Below, one piece after another: positions 3,374 through 64,000 of a DNA stretch of 64,000 nucleotides (positions are counted from its first letter, which is position 1; every line of letters begins with the position of its first letter). The position numbers and the translations under genes were made by a program. The notes beneath the pieces were generated by a model. It had not been told where the DNA came from. It saw only the letters and a program-made list of their open reading frames with translations, and ran no database searches. Where the stretch lies: positions 1,302,001-1,366,000 of the forward strand of contig JADEYG010000007.1 in assembly GCA_016906335.1 (NCBI GenBank). Direction: 5' to 3'. The DNA comes from Novakomyces olei (lineage: Eukaryota).

Positions 3374-3412
3374 TGCTATTCGTATTGTTTAGTTCTCGAT
3401 GCACATATACAG

Positions 3413-3646
<234 letters not shown>

Positions 3647-3728
3647 AGGGAGCCATTGCCATTACGACTAATTTTTTATATACTTAATTCTAATGTAATG
3701 GGGATTCTAATCAAGCCTGTGTCACTCT

Positions 3729-28481: not shown

Positions 28482-29026
28482 TGTCTGCTAATCAAATTAA
28501 CTGCTTCAGAACCTAGTTGCCAAATAGCACCAGACAAGGCAGATTGGGCCAGAGACTAAAGTCCAAAAGGGCGCTCTAAGGATGAACGATAGCGGTGGCG
28601 GTATAAGTCTACACCCGTTAGTGTGATCCCCGGATCAGCTCTCGTTATCAGCAAGTCAAATTCGAATAATAGCTGTAAAACAATGGCTAAACTGCGCTTT
28701 CAACTGCCAAGAAAATATTCAGCGTCTTTGGCGTGGACGGCGCCGCTTGAAAAATGCGCCAAAAACTGCCTGCTCTTAAGGCGACGAGGTAATATTTGCA
28801 ATAGGCCAAATCTTTTGACACGAGTGATGCACAATTATATCATACACACTCGTACACAATATTATCCTATTTATTAATTTACATGCGTGCGAAATATCAC
28901 GCGCGCCTCTAACCGTATTTATATTATTAAATGTTTACCTAAAGTCGACACCCTTTCACACTAAGGGATATCAGAAAAAATAAAAAATTTCAGTTTATAT
29001 AAGAAACAAAAAACAGGACGTTGGTT

Positions 29027-29527
29027 CCCCGCTAAGCACAGTTCCGCTGCCAATAAAAGTGGGCACTCGGGCGCCGACTGGGTCTAGTGTTGCTCTGGGG
29101 AAATGTAATACTATAAGAGCCTATTATGGGGTTGCTCCGGGGAATTTTCCCTTACCTTTTTCTTAGGATAATTAATTATATTACTTTGTGCTAACGTGTG
29201 CATAACCTGCAATATTATCGTACTCGCTCAATTTGAATTATTTTTGGACTCGTCACTCTTCGCTTGCATGTCCAGTTTGGGAAATGGGATGGAACATTAA
29301 GGTTCTTTTCACGTGCATTGCGTGGGGAAAAGCGATGCAGACGGAGCTTGATTTGTTTGTCTGCAAGCTGTCTCTTGCCTTCCACATAGAAAATACATTT
29401 ATTATTATTTCTTTGTACACCTTTCAGCCGCTGCTGCAGCTGTTTCTTTCATCTGCAATTTTACTTGTTCGTGTAACGCGTCGCATTCCGCTTAAGGCTG
29501 ATGGCTTGTTGCACCAACAACCTGGGG
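29027..29527. promoter_or_regulatory. Cluster of five SYGGGG boxes (CreA/Mig1/Scr1-type) upstream of GUT1
   Basis: GCGGGG (- strand) 29027, CTGGGG 29095, CCGGGG 29137, GTGGGG 29322, CTGGGG 29522; factor identity inferred. Confidence 0.5.
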
Positions 29528-29772
29528 ATAGTCGGCCGCCTTGGGAATATCTAAAATTCACTCACTCATTGCGAGTGCGCTTAGCTTTGATTATATGGGA
29601 ATATATGTCTGATAAACAAGTAATGCTAGTGTCTGCAAGTAAGCAATATTAGTTGCGTATTTTATCTCGACTGCAAGCAGTTTTTGTCTCAACGCACAAG
29701 TAATACTAATCTGTAATCGAGCACTCATAGTAAACGTAGCCAAACTTTTGACTGCTATATACCAAGTGCCCA

Positions 29773-29796
29773 GCCCTACCCTATACGACAGTCACG
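29773..29796 (+). promoter_or_regulatory. Homol E (GCCCTACCCT) and Homol D (CAGTCACG) ribosomal-protein promoter boxes
   Basis: Near-exact matches to the S. pombe consensus ACCCTACCCT and CAGTCAC(A/G), in E-then-D order, 74-97 nt upstream of the RPL8 ATG. Confidence 0.85.
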
Positions 29797-29869
29797 CAAG
29801 TACCGTGATGCACAACAACAACAGCTACACAGGAAGCTCTGAACCAAATTATTCCCTTATCCCTTCATT

Positions 29870-31086
29870 ATGGTAAGTCAGTCTTCTCTAACAGACTGTG
29901 CGGCGGAAGCAACGGGATTATAAACCGATGCTATCTCTGCAGACTTGCAGCGTGTTATCCTAGTATTACTCTTGCGTTTGCATGAGCATTGCATGAGCAT
30001 AGATGATTATCTTTGACAGGTTTTCAACCTTTGGGTCTTTGGACTGGCAATCGTTTATGTACTGCGCAACTAGGAGCGGTCGGTGACAAATCAGATTTGT
30101 CGCCGACAGGCATTAGGCTTGTTCCTTTTGCAGCCAATGAAGGTTCATCGCTAACCCGAGGCAATGGCTGTGTCTCTTGTGGACCCGTCCGCACAGAGAC
30201 TGTTAGAGATTATCCTATTTTTTTAATTTGAATCTGGGTTAACTCAATGACAGCCGCCCAAGTCGACAAAGAAGACGCCCGCCGCGAACCCCTTCCCCAC
30301 CAAGAAGGCAACGCAGGCCAAGAAGACAAAGAGCCCTCTCTTTGTAAAGCGTCCGAAGAACTTTGGCATTGGTAAGAAAAATAAGCACTAAAAGATTAAA
30401 TCTAACAGACAGGCCAGGATATCCAGCCAAAGCGTGATTTGTCTCGCTTTGTAAAATGGCCCGAGTATGTACAATTGCAGCGCCGCCGCAAGATCCTGAA
30501 CATGCGCCTCAAGGTCCCACCGGCTCTCGCTCAGTTCCAAAACACTTTGGACAAGAACACTGCCACTCAGGTGTTTAAGCTGCTCAACAAGTACCGCCCT
30601 GAGACCAAGGCCGAGAAGAAGGAGCGTCTCACCAAGGAGGCACAGGCTAAAGCTGATGGCAAAGACCCCAAGTCTGTCTCTGATAAGCCTTATGCCGTCA
30701 AGTTTGGGTTGAACCACATTGTTGCCCTCATTGAGGCCAAGAAGCCTTCGTTAGTCTTGATTGCTAATGATGTCGACCCTATTGAGCTGGTTGTCGTGCT
30801 GCCTGCACTCTGCCGCAAGATGGGTGTGCCTTATGCTATTGTGAAGAACAAGGCACGCTTGGGCACAGTCGTCCACCAAAAGAAGGCTACTGCTTTGGCT
30901 CTCGTAGACGTTCGCTCTGAGGACAAGAGCGAGCTGGCATCTGTTGTTTCAGCCCTCAAGGCCAACTACAACGACAAGTTCGAGCAAATCCGCCGCCAAT
31001 GGGGTGGAGGAATTCTTGGACCCAAGAGCGTTTCCCGCACTGAGAAGAAGCGCAAGATTCTGGAAGCGTCGGCTGTGAAGGCATAG
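29870..31086 (+). CDS. RPL8: 60S ribosomal protein eL8 (L8/L7a); coding exons 29870-29872, 30254-30371, 30413-31086
   Basis: M-PPKSTKK...[32 protein letters not shown]...[25 protein letters not shown]. Confidence 0.98.
29885..30209 (+). ncRNA. Structured cis-regulatory RNA in RPL8 intron 1 (long-range helix, hairpin, kink-turn)
   Basis: 29885-29906 pairs with 30185-30209; 13-bp hairpin 30079-30107; k-turn consensus 30133-30162. Confidence 0.72.
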
Positions 31087-31466
31087 GAGAAAATAATTGT
31101 GGAATTATACCTGAGCAATACTGTAGGCGTTGTACGGCTATAATAAATGTCTTGAAATAAAGGTTCGTGTTGTGACAATAGCACTATTGTAGATTCGTGC
31201 AATAGCCTAGTAAAAAGAAACCGTAGATCTTGTTATTTTTTGACTTTAGGACATTGACTCCAGATGTATTGGGGAAATGGAATGCCAACAAAACAAAATA
31301 TAGGAAACATCTTGAAAACAAAAAGATTAGAGTAACAGTCATAATTAAACGGTGTAAACTATTCAAATGTACTCTTGCAGCTATTGACAAACTATTTGAT
31401 TATCAATATGCCAAATTCAAGTGCAAATCGCAAATTTCGATTCCTAACTCTCATTCAATCGACTCC

Positions 31467-32888
31467 TTATGTCTTGTTTTTTTGTTCGGAAGCAATTTGC
31501 TCCTTTTTCAAATCCTTGTCCTCATCATTGACAGCATTAAGAGCTTGTTGCAGCAAAGCCTCACGTCGCTGGTCCAACTCAATTTCTGCATTTACGCGGT
31601 CTCTGTACACGTCAAGAGTCCTATTGTCCTCGTTGAACAAGTGCGTTCTCGGCAGTGCAACGTTGTTTGTGTGCTCACCGGCGGCACGGTTGACTTCCCG
31701 GATCGCTTGGCCCTCTCCAATCCAGCCTTTAACAATTAAAGTGAAAAGGATACTAGTGCCAACGACAAATGTCAAGATAAAACGGTACTGGTGGTACCAG
31801 GCAGGTGCCCAGCCGTTAGCAGCTGCCTGAGCATCAGCAAAGTACATGCCAACAAACCCGAAAAATTGGACGACAAGAGCAATATCCGTATTAAAAAGAA
31901 CAGTCGGCCAGGCCAGTAAGGGAGCAAGTACACCGAGCAAGTAGCGTCGGAACCCAAGGGCTCCACCGTAATTGGCCAGCTCGAGCCCCCAGTGAACAGC
32001 GCCGAGGAAGGAGAGAATGCAGGCACCATAGCCGACTTGGATAGGCTCCAGTAGCGAGAGAAGGTACTGGGCAGTTTCGGGGGAGACTTCCAGCCATTCG
32101 AGCCAATGCGGCAGAGTCACTTGAGTCGAAGGTACACCCATTTCTGTGCCCATTGCACTTCGTGCACCTCGGCTAATGTTCCAAGAAAGATACAAGGTGG
32201 AGGCAGACGTGAAGAGGTAAGGTACGAGTCCAGCAATTCCTATACTGAGAGCCTGAGGAGGGATACCACCAAAGGCAGAGCTAAGAGTTTTGAAGTCCTC
32301 CATGATTTTTTCCGACCCGGATTTAGTGCCCTTTGGGTCGTCGGGCGAAGTCTGCTCTGCATTGACACCAGTGTTGAATGTCGGTACGACAGTGGAACTT
32401 TCCTCCTTTACAAGTTAGCCATAAAAATAGTTGATACAAAATAGACAAATAAAATAAAATAAAATAATAATGATAAAATAAAAATATACTGAAATGAAGG
32501 AGGTTGGGTGCGCTTGTAAACAGTTGTATTCAAAACTTTCAAAGCTCTATCGAATTGAGCTCAACAAACGTCAAACAGAGAAAAGACGCACTCCAATTAA
32601 AGTATAATTTTAACCAATACAAACAAAAGTAGAATGGGCAAATGATTGTGAGTTAAAATGCTCATGAAAAAAGTCAAAACCAGGTCAACATACAGGACTC
32701 ATATGCTTGGAGCGTCGAAAGACGGCACTCGGTCTTGGCAATGCACGCATAAGAGATGCATTCAGTCCTCTGAAAGCAGTGCCTGCGCTGTGAGAGGCAA
32801 ACGGCCTTATAATTGTTGGACAGGCTTTCAATGCCGAGCAGCGAGCGCCATTGATAAGCCCCCCGGGCATATACGTACGCAAAATCAT
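31467..32888 (-). CDS. DUF3429/TMEM69-like mitochondrial membrane protein, 2 coding exons
   Basis: Arg/Ser-rich presequence exon; GIAGLVPY; QVGYGACILSFLGAVHWG; WAPAWYHQYRFILT. Confidence 0.85.
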
Positions 32889-57014: not shown

Positions 57015-57075
57015 GCTCCACACTGACCTGTGTGCTATTCTGTTTTATTCGGTTTATTTTTATTTATTATATTTA

Positions 57076-57260
<185 letters not shown>

Positions 57261-57970
57261 TATTCAATCTTTCTTTTACTGTAAAAAGGTGCGATACAGT
57301 GTCCGCCTGCCACGCATGTTTGCACGAGCCAATTAGTGCGCCTCAATGCTCAAAATCAAGGCTCAGTTGCTGCGTGTAAGAAGCTGTGGGAGACAGTGCC
57401 GCTACATGCGCTCTATACAATAATGTAATTGTTACTATAATTAATTGTTTTCTATAATTTTTATTAATTCAATTGTTTACAATAATTTAATTGTTTGCCT
57501 ACCACAGTTACACGCTGCACTACTACGTACCGATACATACTGCGCTCCTAATCTGGCACTTTGCACGTGCCTACTTCTAGTCATATTATCATACTATCAA
57601 TCATACTTTATAATCATACTCTATAATCATTCAATTAAACATTCATTTAAACATTCATTATAGTCTACCAATATTCTACTACTTTTATACCTACTTTGTA
57701 TGCATAATGTGGCCTATTACCCCTTTTATTATTCGATTGAATTGAAGGCTGCTTTTTTTTATTTTTCAACATTTACATTGGAGACGGCAGATGGGATTAT
57801 TTGCTAAAAGGCAAAAGTGCGCTTTTGCCTGATCTCGAGACAAGACATCTTTACTTTTGCTCAGGACTATTGTCTCACATAATACGCCATTTCCCAGTAC
57901 TCACTGTGGCCGCCGGGGTGGCGGTATTGACGGACGGCAAGGCAGAAAACGTGCGCGTTCCCTGTGGGCC

Positions 57971-62278: not shown

Positions 62279-64000
62279 TTAATACCGGCCATTGGAGTTG
62301 TATGTCTGCGAATTGTATGGCGGGTACATTTGCCCCGGTGGTGGGTAATTTTGATAGTTCGGATCGTACCCTCCTTGGGGCGGTCCTTGGCTATACTGAC
62401 CCCCATACTGGTCGTACGGATTGCCCTGTTGAGGATACTGGCCAGGCGGGAATTGTTGTGGTGGTGGAGGATTATACCCGTAATTTCCTCCAGACTGGTA
62501 CCCATAAGGAGGCTGCCCGCTCTGCACAGAGTAGGAATACTCTTCCGTCTGAGAATAAGCCTGATACCCTTCGTTACCAGACGACATTGATCCATAACCT
62601 TGATTTCGATCTGGCTCTCCATACGGTGGCTGGTAGCTTTCGTTGGGTGGTCGATAGCCTTCGTTGGGTGGTCGGTACGCTTCACTTGGCGGCTGATACC
62701 CTTCGTTGGGTGGTCGGTAATTTTCGGTAGGCGGAGGATAGCCTTGTTCCAAATTGCTTGGAGGGTTATTAGACTGCTCATATGCGGCCAAAGACGCGTT
62801 GCCATATCGTAAGTTTTGCGGCTGCTGAGGTTGGTGTTTGTAGGCAGAGTCTGGCTGGGGATTTACGTATCCCGTACTTTGATTAGACGGATAATTGAGA
62901 CTTGGATTATTATTATTGTGAGAGTAACTTTGGTCTTGTCTTCCTTGACCGGGTGAAGAGCCAGTATTTGCACCGAAAAAGTTTTCTCCCACTAATCGTC
63001 CACTGTGCGAATGACCGTGGCCTTCTCCTGAGTGATGACGGCCATTTTGCACTGCCTCGGCCGTCAAACAGCTCATGATTTGCCGTCTTTTAGAGCCATC
63101 AAGGCCGTTCAACCATCTGCTCACCTGGTCAGCCATGTCTCTGTGAATGGGCAACTGTGCCAGTGCTGGATGGTGGAAGACGCTGACAATATCGTTGACA
63201 GCTCGGTTAGGATCTATGGAAACGTCATTCCATGCAGATGAGATAATATTGGTTGCATACTTTATGACTGCAACAGCGACCATACCAGCCGGCTCGTTCA
63301 AATAACAGGTAAAGTGATCCTTGCTTAGCATAGAGTGTGTAGGATCTGAAGCATTTGGGTCTTTAAACACCTCCATTTGTGCTTCACTCGAGGTCACTAG
63401 GGAAGATCCGGAGCCCACTGAGCTATCAATCTTTGTCAATATCGGCGTGATGAAGGGCTCTATTTCTTTAAGAACAAACGCGGTTACCGAATCTGTGATT
63501 TTCTCCACGATATCCGCGATCCCGAGGCTTTCAAGAACAGAGTCACAAAATTTGACCACCTTGTCTCTGAATACGAGCAAAGGGTAAATCCGTCTAATGA
63601 CTTCATCAGCGTCCATGGAGTCAGCGTTTGAGACCGGCATGCTTCTCACTCCCTGTGCCTGTGATTCAAATTCGTCCAGGTCTCTAGATGAGATTCCAAA
63701 GGACGAAAAGCTCGGGACGAGGTTAAATAGTTTTCTAATCTTGCCAAAATCAAAGTAAGACGATTGCTGATTCGTAAGCTGCCCATTTAAATCTGAAATT
63801 TGTGTCTGTGACAAATGGTCAGATGCCTCACCCAGCATTGAGTGAACGAAATCTAAACCCCCAAAGGTCCCAGTGACCAATGGCCACACCCGTTTGCCCT
63901 GAATGTTCACCATTGTATTTGCTCCAACGTGCGGGAACACGTCCCGCTCACCGAGCTGCAAAAGGCAAAGCTCAACAAAATTGCTGTGAGCTGAAAAATC
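62279..64000 (-). CDS. Het-C domain protein (HET-C/TinC family), 3' part; 5' end outside the window
   Basis: DFSAHSNFVEL; DVFPHVG; PLVTGTFGGLDFVHSMLGE; DPTHSMLSKDHF; VFHHPAL; G/Q/Y/P-rich tail. Confidence 0.93.
   Translation of the reverse strand, partial: DFSAHSNFVELCLLQLGERDVFPHVGANTMVNIQGKRVWPLVTGTFGGLDFVHSMLGEASDHLSQTQISDLNGQLTNQQSSYFDFGKIRKLFNLVPSFSSFGISSRDLDEFESQAQGVRSMPVSNADSMDADEVIRRIYPLLVFRDKVVKFCDSVLESLGIADIVEKITDSVTAFVLKEIEPFITPILTKIDSSVGSGSSLVTSSEAQMEVFKDPNASDPTHSMLSKDHFTCYLNEPAGMVAVAVIKYATNIISSAWNDVSIDPNRAVNDIVSVFHHPALAQLPIHRDMADQVSRWLNGLDGSKRRQIMSCLTAEAVQNGRHHSGEGHGHSHSGRLVGENFFGANTGSSPGQGRQDQSYSHNNNNPSLNYPSNQSTGYVNPQPDSAYKHQPQQPQNLRYGNASLAAYEQSNNPPSNLEQGYPPPTENYRPPNEGYQPPSEAYRPPNEGYRPPNESYQPPYGEPDRNQGYGSMSSGNEGYQAYSQTEEYSYSVQSGQPPYGYQSGGNYGYNPPPPQQFPPGQYPQQGNPYDQYGGQYSQGPPQGGYDPNYQNYPPPGQMYPPYNSQTYNSNGRY

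Follow-up and report, generated by a model that had tools for sequence, protein, structure and literature searches.

The window analysed here is a 64,000-nt stretch of Novakomyces olei contig JADEYG010000007.1, and the gene under study lies on its forward strand (Table 1). By its sequence, this gene is eL8 (RPL8 in yeast, RPL7A in human), with a long first intron for which two folds are predicted to be possible. The identity of the product was given by matches to the Pfam family Ribosomal_L7Ae (1.7e-20) and to eL8 in the PDB (2e-103). Intron 1 is strongly structured (z = -5.4 on folding) and, as the initial annotation had remarked, is not AT-rich (GC 0.45, against 0.27 in the 41-nt intron 2). 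The eL8 first intron spans 174-482 nt in the 24 relative loci with a complete intron. A regular-expression survey of intron lengths in the window performed no better than it did on shuffles. DNA sequencing run X2 was identical to the window over the part that it covered and thus offers no variation with which to test compensation, and runs X3 and X4 touch only 38 nt of exon 2.

Table 1. Features of the eL8 locus, in window coordinates
Feature	Position	Strand	Comment
eL8 start codon ATG	29870..29872	+	intron 1 follows directly; relatives share the ATG/GTAAG layout
Intron 1 of eL8, 381 nt, GTAAGT...ACAG	29873..30253	+	boundaries by exon 2 homology (PPK...)
5' splice site GUAAGUC	29873..29879	+	alternative fold: predicted pairing with GACUUGC 29942-48 (MFE, intron + 9 nt)
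Local hairpin CAGUCU / AGACUG, 8-nt loop	29879..29898	+	mutually exclusive with 5' arm
5' arm of long-range (zipper) helix	29885..29906	+	
14-bp hairpin within intron 1	30079..30107	+	single G.U pair valid only in plus-strand RNA
CAGCCAAUG, look-alike of 3' splice-site region	30131..30139	+	can pair with CAAUGGCUG 30162-70; seen in MFEs
Candidate k-turn hairpin GCC-AAU-GA-A-GGUU / AACC-C-GA-GGC	30133..30162	+	consensus CUAAC (30151-55) in loop and NC stem
GGCU, H1 5' strand	30166..30169	+	pairs with AGCC 30252-55
Hairpin H2	30172..30200	+	12 bp, one bulge, CCCG loop, -15.7 kcal/mol
3' arm of long-range helix	30185..30209	+	H2 loop end, H2 3' strand (30188-200), junction UGUUA, GAG of H3
UAGAG junction block	30204..30208	+	every one of the 36 parsed sequences has UAGAG or UACGAG
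Hairpin H3 around presumed branch point	30206..30245	+	GAG 30206-08 / CUC 30243-45; inner AUUAUCC / GGGUUAA
Presumed branch point UUAAC (A30242)	30239..30243	+	11 nt before 3' splice-site G; homologous to CURAY in relatives' H3
AAUGAC, strand between H3 and H1	30246..30251	+	nearly invariant
AG/CC, H1 3' strand	30252..30255	+	3' splice-site AG and first two exon bases
Exon 2 of eL8	30254..30371	+	
Intron 2, 41 nt	30372..30412	+	CUAAC branch point, GC 0.27
Exon 3, coding part including stop codon	30413..31086	+	

The initial annotation had proposed that a 21-bp helix brackets this intron, and the complementarity is present: 29885-29906 can pair with 30185-30209 within the 381-nt intron 1, and all of the pairs are Watson-Crick. 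Within it, UCUCUAACAG (29885-94) pairs with CUGUUAGAGA (30200-09), CUGUGCGG (29896-903) with CCGCACAG (30189-96), and CGG (29904-06) with CCG (30185-87), with interruptions at a 1x3 internal loop (A29895 opposite AGA 30197-99) and at one bulge (U30188). The arms were also listed by an inverted-repeat search of the window, and the arms alone gave -33.6 kcal/mol in duplex folding. The end-to-end duplex energy of the helix was reached by none of 2,000 dinucleotide shuffles of the intron and was found in only 2 of 1,312 381-nt segments of the window, one of which was the eL8 locus itself. The spacing that had been described holds as well, with 12 nt from the donor to the helix and 29 nt from the helix to UUAAC (30239-43). 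Counted to the presumed branch A30242, the second distance is 32 nt, giving a total linker of 12 + 32 = 44 nt.

A predicted three-way junction occupies the 3' end of the intron, and 35 fungal metagenome loci have the same element in this part of their eL8 first intron. Eighty eL8 metagenome loci were kept, 46 of these had the 3' block, and 35 were parsed together with the window. The order of the element is GGCU, H2, UAGAG, H3 (with the branch point) and CUC-AAUGA-C-AG/CC, the hairpins H2 and H3 lying between the blocks. The domain was analyzed by anchor-based parsing and covariance models; MAFFT followed by RNAalifold misaligned its variable hairpins and yielded nothing beyond H1 and small stems. 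After two near-duplicates of L014 were dropped to leave 34 sequences, all three helices were predicted in 29 of the 34 domains when each was folded alone and unconstrained, as compared with 12 of 680 in which the hairpin interiors had been shuffled.

Covariation was assessed in alignments fitted to the model's own structure. Among 16 relatives, both-side changes were found in 22 of 36 pairs, and 90.4% of cells were paired in this model-fitted alignment, compared with 76.2% in shuffles (none of 500 reached the observed value) and 41-52% in slid controls. Both sides varied in 33 of 36 pairs in a 29-row alignment, fitted in the same way, with 87.5% of cells paired. In alignment A6, row L002:161-264 is probably false. 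A covariance model built without the window (R2) had a single match in the 64 kb, at 30164-30258, which was full length (23.6 bits, E = 0.0032). H1 comprises only 4-6 bp; in wider sequence context, 4 of 24 relatives had a predicted H1 probability above 0.5, and the values for the window were 0.00-0.41. Here, CAGCCAAUG can pair with CAAUGGCUG and would thereby compete with H1 for GGCU.

The two structures draw on the same bases. Of the 25 bases of the helix 3' arm, 22 belong to the H2 3' strand, the junction or the GAG of H3, so that the long-range bridge and the conserved junction would exclude each other. Housing this conserved structured element is also the simplest reason for the length of intron 1, and a need to collapse a long intron is therefore not the sole explanation of the helix. 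Complementarity of the 5' arm stood out both against the 3'-arm target (z = -7.5, 0 of 60 shuffles) and against the whole domain (z = -5.8, 0 of 25) in scans run with 25-30-nt windows; duplexes of entire 5' regions with entire domains were loose and uninformative. None of the 24 relatives with a complete intron carried a stretch complementary to the H2-3'/UAGAG target to a similar degree, the best being L027 (z = -3.5) and L029 (z = -2.7). Scanning against the whole domain, only L044 stood out: a 5'-proximal segment of its intron (nt 18-44) is complementary to its own H3 5' strand (-32.1 kcal/mol, 0 of 200 dinucleotide shuffles), a result that is borderline after correction for 24 tests. A weaker 5'-proximal complement was present in L050 (6 of 200 shuffles). 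Judged by predicted pairing, the long-range helix lacks a conserved counterpart in 22 of the 24 relatives; with protein identities of 58-80%, all 24 are distant.

Predicted occupancy of the helix depended on sequence context. When the intron was folded alone (29873-30253), the mean pair probability in the ensemble was 0.987; it was 0.063 with 9 nt of exon 2, 0.00 with flanks of -33 and +47 nt, and 0.026 when 29800 to the end of exon 2 was folded. Since predicted occupancy collapses to 0.00-0.06 on the addition of exon flanks, the helix is not the stable ground state that the initial annotation had implied. In four sequence contexts, the difference in ensemble energy between bridge and junction was -4.1, +0.7, +5.2 and +0.5 kcal/mol, and the two folds are thus near-isoenergetic in the folding model. 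The local hairpin at the 5' splice site that had been put forward as the mutually exclusive alternative does exist (CAGUCU 29879-84 with AGACUG 29893-98), but it is weak (-5.5 kcal/mol). Five of its six pairs were found in the MFE of the junction state, and the hairpin arises only within that alternative fold. An exclusive alternative to the helix is therefore present as proposed, but its main form is the conserved three-way junction on the 3' arm rather than the 6-bp hairpin. Likewise, the earlier suggestion of a splicing-enhancing bridge or conformational switch was the right class of idea, and the helix lies where a zipper stem should, but the key competitor had been missed.

The presumed branch point UUAAC is non-consensus, while intron 2 has CUAAC and a consensus CUAAC also occurs at 30151-55 within intron 1. 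If the latter were the true branch point, the junction (30166-30257) would be a "downstream stem" that returns to it a 3' splice site lying at a distance of 99 nt, and some other role, or none at all, would fall to the long-range helix. The upstream motif matches the consensus perfectly, as UUAAC does not, and H1 would set the AG about 12 nt from it. However, all parsed relatives have a CURAY inside H3, near the 3' splice site and homologous to UUAAC, and the 3' splice-site AG would be base-paired under this arrangement, which we regard as quite improbable.

eL8 belongs to the L7Ae family of k-turn-binding proteins, and the intron has k-turn features, which makes the hypothesis that eL8 is the sensor directly testable. 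By sequence, 30133-62 conforms to a standard k-turn, with a 3-bp C stem closed by a C-G pair, an AAU bulge, GA/GA and a 4-bp NC stem; a shuffle contained at least one such motif with P = 0.05, and taken by itself the candidate in the window reaches only P of about 0.05-0.2 by shuffling. In some lineages, namely six of eight "group 2" loci and the window, a k-turn hairpin, canonical by sequence, adjoins the junction; in the six relatives it has covarying stems and lies 12-19 nt upstream. In the "group 1" relatives, motif scans of the region upstream of the junction found no k-turn. These relatives have a conserved GAUGA or GAAGA 3-5 nt before GGCU, for which no consistent partner strand was found. 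By eye, L065 (a loop-closed form) and L074 (one mismatch) are k-turn-like, and neither passed either scan.

Three further k-turn assignments were rejected. The internal loop of the long-range helix (A opposite AGA) is not a k-turn, the bases after its 3-nt side being C-U paired to A-G rather than G.A. The junction strand CUC-AAU-GA with UA-GAG is not a standard k-turn either, as position 2n is U, not G, in all 36 sequences. Nor does it have the topology of a k-junction, in which the non-bulged strand is described as carrying the third helix, placed between A1n and the C helix and facing the loop (PMC10573300); here, H2 enters 5' of U-A and not between A1n and GAG. An A.U at position 2n is described for the k-turn Kt-23 (PMC2790904), and the CUC-AAU-GA strand may work like a k-turn though off consensus.

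We put the chances at about even that eL8 intron 1 is an autoregulatory splicing switch like that of yeast RPL7B, with eL8 as its likely sensor. In the bridge fold of such a switch, 29885-906 would pair with 30185-209 over 21 bp and unfold H2 and H3. At the 5' splice site, at the branch point and at the 3' splice site, the RNA would then be unpaired or weakly paired, and the 5' splice site would be brought within 44 linker nt of the branch A. In the junction fold, H1 (GGCU/AGCC, with the 3' splice-site AG), H2 and H3 (with the branch point) would form, and the 5' arm would fold on itself as the local hairpin, which would stack on a helix in which the 5' splice site is paired. The bridge would act as a structural splicing enhancer and the junction as the repressed state. 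Excess free eL8 would stabilize the junction and so inhibit splicing of the gene's own transcript, a form of autoregulation. Candidate eL8 sites are the k-turn that is canonical by sequence (30133-62) and the k-turn-like CUC-AAU-GA of the junction. Any consequence for splicing, the identity of the active fold and the role of eL8 as ligand are inferred here. More tentatively, fungal eL8 first introns in general might carry a conserved eL8-binding three-way junction with CUC-AAU-GA as a k-turn-like platform, so that an excess of eL8 would lock the RNA and bury the branch point and the AG. The 21-bp zipper and the look-alike at 30131-39 would then be competitors that set the threshold in this species, within an L7Ae-family circuit conserved across fungal classes; this broader proposal is possible but doubtful.

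Other readings of the helix were weighed against the switch. The helix may be a non-functional by-product, with the junction alone mattering and the 5' arm being an inverted duplication or templated repair copy of H2-3'/UAGAG that pairs rarely, if at all, in vivo. An inverted duplication of recent date in the DNA would also produce pairing of the kind observed (21 of 21 pairs Watson-Crick, no G.U), and the helix is missing from 22 of 24 distant relatives. In addition, H2 can form once transcribed, the 5' arm being some 280 nt off, and the occupancy of 0.00-0.06 predicted with exon flanks means that the helix may rarely form. We nevertheless consider this reading rather unlikely: the 5' arm occupies the very position that steric limits leave to a zipper stem (12 nt from the donor, with a 44-nt linker), the arms differ by the 1x3 loop and the bulge and so are not a pristine copy, unrelated sequence does the same job in L044, and near-isoenergetic states are a requirement of a switch. 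We give still less weight to a purely constitutive zipper, which would shorten a long intron with neither alternation nor sensor, its overlap with the conserved element being incidental. The helix is placed as the positional rules for zipper stems require, and such stems are described as common in long ribosomal-protein introns of Saccharomyces cerevisiae, with sequences poorly conserved from species to species (PMC12350175); but a constitutive helix would do away for good with an element that many fungi conserve, and relatives splice introns of 174-482 nt without it.

Two further readings of the helix appear far less credible. Inverted repeats of about 21 bp flanking about 280 bp would suit a small transposon (MITE) in the intron. 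However, no target-site duplication was found at the arm ends, the window has no second copy of an arm at up to 3 mismatches, and the 3' arm belongs to an element conserved in other fungi. Further, only one contig of sequencing run X1 (131,496 records, 17.8 Mb, probably from the source genome) matched 29300-31200 at 80% or more, in a search that reported pieces down to 38 nt for other runs. We regard this origin as extremely improbable. Vertebrate eL8/RPL7A genes host snoRNAs, and a GC-normal, strongly structured intron (z = -5.4) could suggest that the intron hosts a snoRNA or another stable RNA, with the helix as its terminal stem. This too is very unlikely: an Rfam search of 29000-31500 with E up to 10 gave chance-level matches only and no family of snoRNA character, the plus strand of the intron has neither CUGA (box D) nor RUGAUGA, and the 14-bp hairpin, as reasoned from its sequence, has no pseudouridylation pocket.

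In yeast, about ten ribosomal-protein genes are known to autoregulate by way of intron structure. To our knowledge, it was not until 2025 that a zipper stem was shown to compete with a conserved structure that binds protein, and this in a single gene. Intron 1 of S. cerevisiae RPL7B is described as containing an enhancer in the form of a zipper stem, a conserved structure that binds Rpl7 and excludes that stem, and a branch point off the consensus (Granas et al. 2025, PMC12311795). The eL8 intron resembles it in being the long first intron of a ribosomal-protein gene in which a zipper would join the region of the 5' splice site to that of the branch point. As in RPL7B, the conserved structure is exclusive with the enhancer stem, here through 22 of 25 shared bases; and the two folds are similar in predicted energy. 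In a switch of the RPL7B type, a suboptimal branch point makes the enhancer necessary; the branch point here would likewise be off consensus if it is the presumed UUAAC, but not if it is the CUAAC at 30151-55. It differs in that the protein is eL8, of the L7Ae family, and not uL30, the RNA element is unrelated, and both binding and regulation are predicted. Here, too, the presumed branch point lies inside the conserved structure, which also takes the 3' splice-site AG into a helix, whereas the authors of the RPL7B study argue that repression does not act through a block of the branch point (PMC12311795). Zipper stems are defined as stems of at least 6 bp that link the 5' splice-site side to the branch-point side (Rangan et al. 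2025, PMC12350175). The present helix has 21 bp and -33.6 kcal/mol, and its 44-nt linker agrees with the linker rule if A30242 is the branch A. Compared with the S. cerevisiae zipper stems, such as that of RPS17B (PMC12350175), it occurs in a different fungus with mostly short-intron signals, borrows its 3' arm from a conserved element, and is known from sequence. If the switch exists, it would be a second case of a zipper opposed to a conserved structure, outside Saccharomyces and for a different protein. If only the ordinary reading holds, the intron is long as the host of a conserved element, and the helix is one lineage's addition.

The autoregulatory site of yeast RPL30 is a k-turn, and this L7Ae-family protein resembles eL8 here in having a k-turn or k-turn-like site near an expression signal in its own transcript. 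RPL30 is named among splicing-autoregulated genes (PMC12311795). The 5' leader of archaeal L7Ae is described as having the same arrangement (PMC5539422, PMC6298567). Unlike in both of these systems, eL8 binding here is only predicted, and the junction strand is off consensus (U at 2n). The candidate at 30133-62 shares with the k-turn of the U4 snRNA 5' stem-loop the core GCC-AAU-GA / CC..GA-GGC and the C-G pair closing the C stem, but its C stem has only 3 bp, it has an extra A.C at 3b.3n, and its context is an intron rather than an snRNA (PMC2952850). Regulation of human and Caenorhabditis elegans eL8/L7A genes via unproductive splicing is noted in a review (PMC8047918). Our literature searches found no report of a k-turn or autoregulation in a fungal eL8/RPL7A intron and, for L7Ae-family autoregulation via a k-turn in the protein's own mRNA, returned archaeal L7Ae cases only.

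The element of H2 and H3 agrees with the published description of the fungal rpl7-l8-s3 motif (Li and Breaker 2017, PMC5640933). The paired purine-rich stretch described for P2 of that motif fits AAAGAAGAU in H3 of L002 and L004-L006, and the copy in the window is without it. The text of that report mentions no third helix bearing the 3' splice site, no k-turn and no link to L7Ae (PMC5640933). Rfam 15 does not contain the motif, and the Rfam search of the locus gave no match to it. Compared by description only, rpl7-l8-s3 is probably the same element as H2 and H3, and, if so, the eL8 intron would suggest a mechanism for a fungal intron motif that was reported in 2017 without one.

The gene encodes ribosomal protein eL8 (yeast RPL8, human RPL7A); exon 3 matched Pfam Ribosomal_L7Ae at 1.7e-20 and, as its best solved chain, 8esq_G, the 259-residue 60S ribosomal protein L8 / eL8, at 2e-103. 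Boundaries placed by homology would give the first intron the length stated in the initial annotation. The sequence was identical across the covered part in the only other sequencing run that carried the locus. At the end of exon 2 (30338-30375), contigs of another organism from runs X2, X3 and X4 match 38 nt with 6 differences and then diverge; they represent a different eL8 gene, whose coding sequence is conserved here. Elsewhere in the window, long (AAT)n / (ATT)n microsatellites at 3408-3650 and 57064-57283 make up an inverted repeat of 220 nt whose arms are 53 kb apart, and many further AT-rich microsatellites lie in intergenic DNA. A 21-nt unit (GGTGG..CG.TAGC.TTCGTTG) that is possibly a coding repeat occurs five times in tandem at 62604-62745; its copies resemble the reference copy at 62-74%.

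Features of the eL8 gene and of the conserved element in its first intron (window coordinates; the slash in AG/CC marks the splice site)
Feature	Position	Remark
Start codon	29870-72	GTAAGT directly 3'
Intron 1	29873-30253	381 nt; boundaries by homology
GGCU (H1 5' strand)	30166-69	
H2	30172-30200	
UAGAG	30204-08	
H3	30206-30245	
AAUGAC	30246-51	
AG/CC (H1 3' strand)	30252-55	
Exon 2 start	30254	CCG CCC AAG (PPK...)
Intron 2	30372-30412	41 nt
Reading frame end	31086	

The initial annotation had described a long-range helix across intron 1, here called the bridge, and all of its pairings were recovered (10, 8 and 3 Watson-Crick pairs, interrupted by a 1x3 internal loop and one bulge). Folded alone, the arms reached -33.6 kcal/mol. 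The end-to-end duplex energy of the intron was reached by 0 of 2000 dinucleotide shuffles and by 2 of the 1312 381-nt segments of the window, one being this locus. The local hairpin at the donor (CAGUCU 29879-84 with AGACUG 29893-98) is also present but weak, at -5.5 kcal/mol.

The intron was compared with 80 eL8 loci kept from metagenomes, which show 58-80% protein identity across their best segment. Upstream of exon 2, these distant fungal relatives likewise have a long first intron. It either follows the ATG immediately or sits in the 5' UTR, and it spans 174-482 nt in the 24 loci whose donor is clear. These introns have sequence blocks in common, and a 3' block, TC[A/T/C]ATGA[C/T]...AG, was found in 46/80 loci. 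After duplicates, three truncated records and one false match were dropped, 35 loci and the window were parsed, in the order GGCU, a variable H2, UAGAG (or UACGAG), a variable H3 with a CURAY branch point, and CUC-AAUGA-C(C)...AG/CC. The 3' arm of the bridge (30185-30209) consists of the H2 loop end, the entire H2 3' strand, the junction UGUUA and the GAG of H3; thus, 22 of its 25 bases lie in the conserved element.

Several lines of evidence indicate that this element folds as a three-way junction. When 34 domains were folded individually without constraint (L015 and L079 being left out as near-duplicates of L014), H1, H2 and H3 all formed in 29, compared with 12 of 680 controls in which only hairpin interiors were shuffled. 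The stems are built from differing sequences across lineages, including GAGC/GCUC, AGAGUG/CGCUCU, GUCUC/GAGAC and GCCCGCAC/GUGCGGGC for H2, frequently capped by GNRA or UUCG loops, and AAAGAAGAU/AUCUUCUUU, CAAAGCA/UGCUUUG, GAACAG/CUGUUC and CGAGG/CCUCG for H3. A covariance model was seeded with five similar loci, rebuilt on 16 confident hits and used to align further sequences. Both sides had changed in 22/36 pairs of the 16-row alignment and in 33/36 pairs of the 29-row alignment, with 90.4% and 87.5% of cells paired, although both alignments were fitted to the structure, which biases them in its favour, and row L002:161-264 is probably false. In the 16-row controls, 76.2% of cells were paired after shuffling (0/500 reaching the observed value) and 41-52% after sliding. 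The second model, built with the window excluded, found 30164-30258 as its sole match in the 64-kb window, at full length (23.6 bits, E = 0.0032). Two further elements, L013:217-307 and L052:2344-2447, were detected by covariance model but not by the regular expression used to find the 3' block.

H1 is the least secure helix of the junction. It is short, GGCU and AGCC are invariant in most sequences, and the conservation of AG/CC is due in part to the splice site and the Pro codon. With flanks of -20 to +30 nt, H2 and H3 were each predicted above 0.5 in 18/24 relatives and H1 in only 4/24. In favour of H1, CC is retained where the exon is 5' UTR (L012, L045, L048, L066 and L069), the eight group 2 loci have a shifted GCUGG/CCAGC, and the fifth pair covaries (A-U, G-C, G.U).

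Since the 3' arm is unable to sit in the bridge and in H2/H3 at once, the bridge and the junction are mutually exclusive. Their predicted energies are close and vary with the sequence folded.

Predicted occupancy of the competing folds of intron 1 and their ensemble energy difference
Sequence folded	Bridge	H2	H3	Bridge minus junction (kcal/mol)
Intron alone	0.987	0.002	0.002	-4.1
Intron + 9 nt of exon 2	0.063	0.90	0.78	+0.7
-33..+47 nt	0.00	0.97	0.88	+5.2
29800 to end of exon 2	0.026	0.94	0.77	+0.5

In the predicted junction fold, the 5' arm adopts the donor hairpin with 5/6 pairs, stacked on a 7-bp helix that joins the 5' splice site GUAAGUC with GACUUGC 29942-48, and the junction would cover the branch point and the 3' splice site. 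On paper, all three splice signals would be free in one fold and paired in the other. The segment CAGCCAAUG (30131-39) resembles the 3' splice-site region (..CAG/CC, AAUGA) and pairs with CAAUGGCUG (30162-70), making it a competitor of H1 for GGCU. A separate 14-bp hairpin (GUCGGUGACAAAUC / GAUUUGUCGCCGAC), whose loop gap is 1 nt, lies at 30079-30107; its one non-Watson-Crick pair is G.U on the + strand and A.C on the opposite strand, which hints at RNA-level structure inside the intron. The proposal of a bridge or switch, with the donor hairpin as the alternative, is partly supported and sharpened: the mutually exclusive alternative is the conserved junction, and in the preferred reading the helix is one arm of an intron with two states.

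Other accounts of the helix were weighed against this reading. A MITE with terminal inverted repeats is unlikely, given that there is no target-site duplication and no second copy in the window, that the probable source run has a single contig on the locus at a likeness of at least 80%, and that the 3' arm is ancestral sequence. An intron-hosted snoRNA is similarly unlikely, with no Rfam match and neither box D nor box C on the + strand. It is possible that the bridge is a constitutive zipper without regulation.

As defined in the available part of the source (PMC12350175), a zipper stem has at least 6 bp and a total linker of 42-85 nt; the bridge has 21 bp and linkers of 12 nt and 32 nt, 44 nt in total, with the branch A taken as 30242. 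That position, in UUAAC, is assumed and is homologous to the CURAY of relatives; the perfect CUAAC at 30151-55 is a possible alternative branch point.

The serious rival is that the 5' arm arose by inverted duplication and is a by-product without function, as every pair is Watson-Crick, helix occupancy is low with flanks included and the helix is not conserved. Against the H2 3' strand plus UAGAG as target, the window reached -34.9 kcal/mol (z = -7.5); among 24 distant relatives the bridge was not conserved, only L027 (z = -3.5) and L029 (z = -2.7) showing signal. Zipper stems are likewise reported to be poorly conserved between Saccharomyces species (PMC12350175, as excerpted), so that the lack of the bridge from distant fungi argues only weakly against a function. 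When whole domains were scanned, a segment 18-44 nt past the donor of L044 paired with its own H3 5' strand (-32.1 kcal/mol, 0/200 dinucleotide shuffles), a result that is borderline after correction for 24 tests; 6/200 and 23/200 shuffles reached the observed values of L050 and L014. The best upstream partner lay inside the first 60 intron nt in 15/25 sequences, window included, a 5'-proximal placement that is suggestive and no more. In L029 (889-1027 and about 20 nt upstream), UACUUUCAGUGUCGU immediately precedes the domain and is complementary to AACGAUACUGUAGAG (H2 3' strand plus UAGAG; -16.4 kcal/mol, 0/60 shuffles); it is a counterpart, at short range, of the anti-junction arm in the window.

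The function, switch direction and ligand of the two-state intron are what we infer. eL8 is a member of the k-turn-binding L7Ae family, and one possibility is that it senses its own level through a k-turn-like RNA. The junction strand CUC-AAU-GA is shaped as the bulged strand of a k-turn (a C stem ending in C, the bulge AAU, then GA), and by sequence the A in UAGAG might serve as the 1n adenine and GAG/CUC as the C stem. The same strand occurs in the U4 5' stem-loop, as far as the excerpted account goes (PMC2952850). However, position 2n is U in 36/36 sequences, and the entry point of the third helix differs from that of the k-junction in the available description; this strand therefore does not qualify as a member of the k-turn family.

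Just upstream of the junction, the sequence of the hairpin 30133-62 (GCC-AAU-GA-A-GGUU ... AACC-C-GA-GGC) fits the k-turn consensus. The probability that a shuffle of that region contains one or more motifs of this kind is 0.05, or about 0.2 under looser criteria. The 30131-39 arm overlaps this candidate, so that the k-turn fold, the 30131-39/30162-70 helix and H1 vie for the same bases. Among the eight group 2 loci, six (L042, L044, L050, L051, L055 and L063) carry a k-turn hairpin that lies 12-19 nt before the junction (GCUGGGCU), L055 (CCACU-GA-GC-UUCG-GC-GAU-GA-AGUGG) being one example. In all six the closing pair is C-G, the C and NC stems covary and the strand order is opposite to that of the window. 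By eye, k-turn-like forms were also seen in L065 (loop-closed) and L074 (with one mismatch). No consistent k-turn was found in the scanned group 1 relatives, those outside group 2. A conserved GAUGA or GAAGA lies 3-5 nt upstream of GGCU, directly before UUU-GGCU, in L004-L007, L011 and L012; L002 and L004-L006 share a conserved GAAGCAAUUCCG block at a greater distance upstream. For neither block did a pairing partner emerge.

In the literature, no report of a k-turn or of autoregulation was found for fungal eL8 introns, and L7Ae autoregulation was found for archaeal L7Ae only. Human and C. elegans eL8/L7A genes are regulated via unproductive splicing, according to the excerpted part of a review (PMC8047918). 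Compared by description only, as given in the available part of Li and Breaker 2017 (PMC5640933), the conserved junction element is probably their 'rpl7-l8-s3' candidate motif. The closest system is S. cerevisiae RPL7B intron 1, which, in the accessible portion of its report, combines a zipper-stem enhancer, a mutually exclusive conserved Rpl7-binding structure and a weak branch point, and in which repression acts through loss of the enhancer (PMC12311795).
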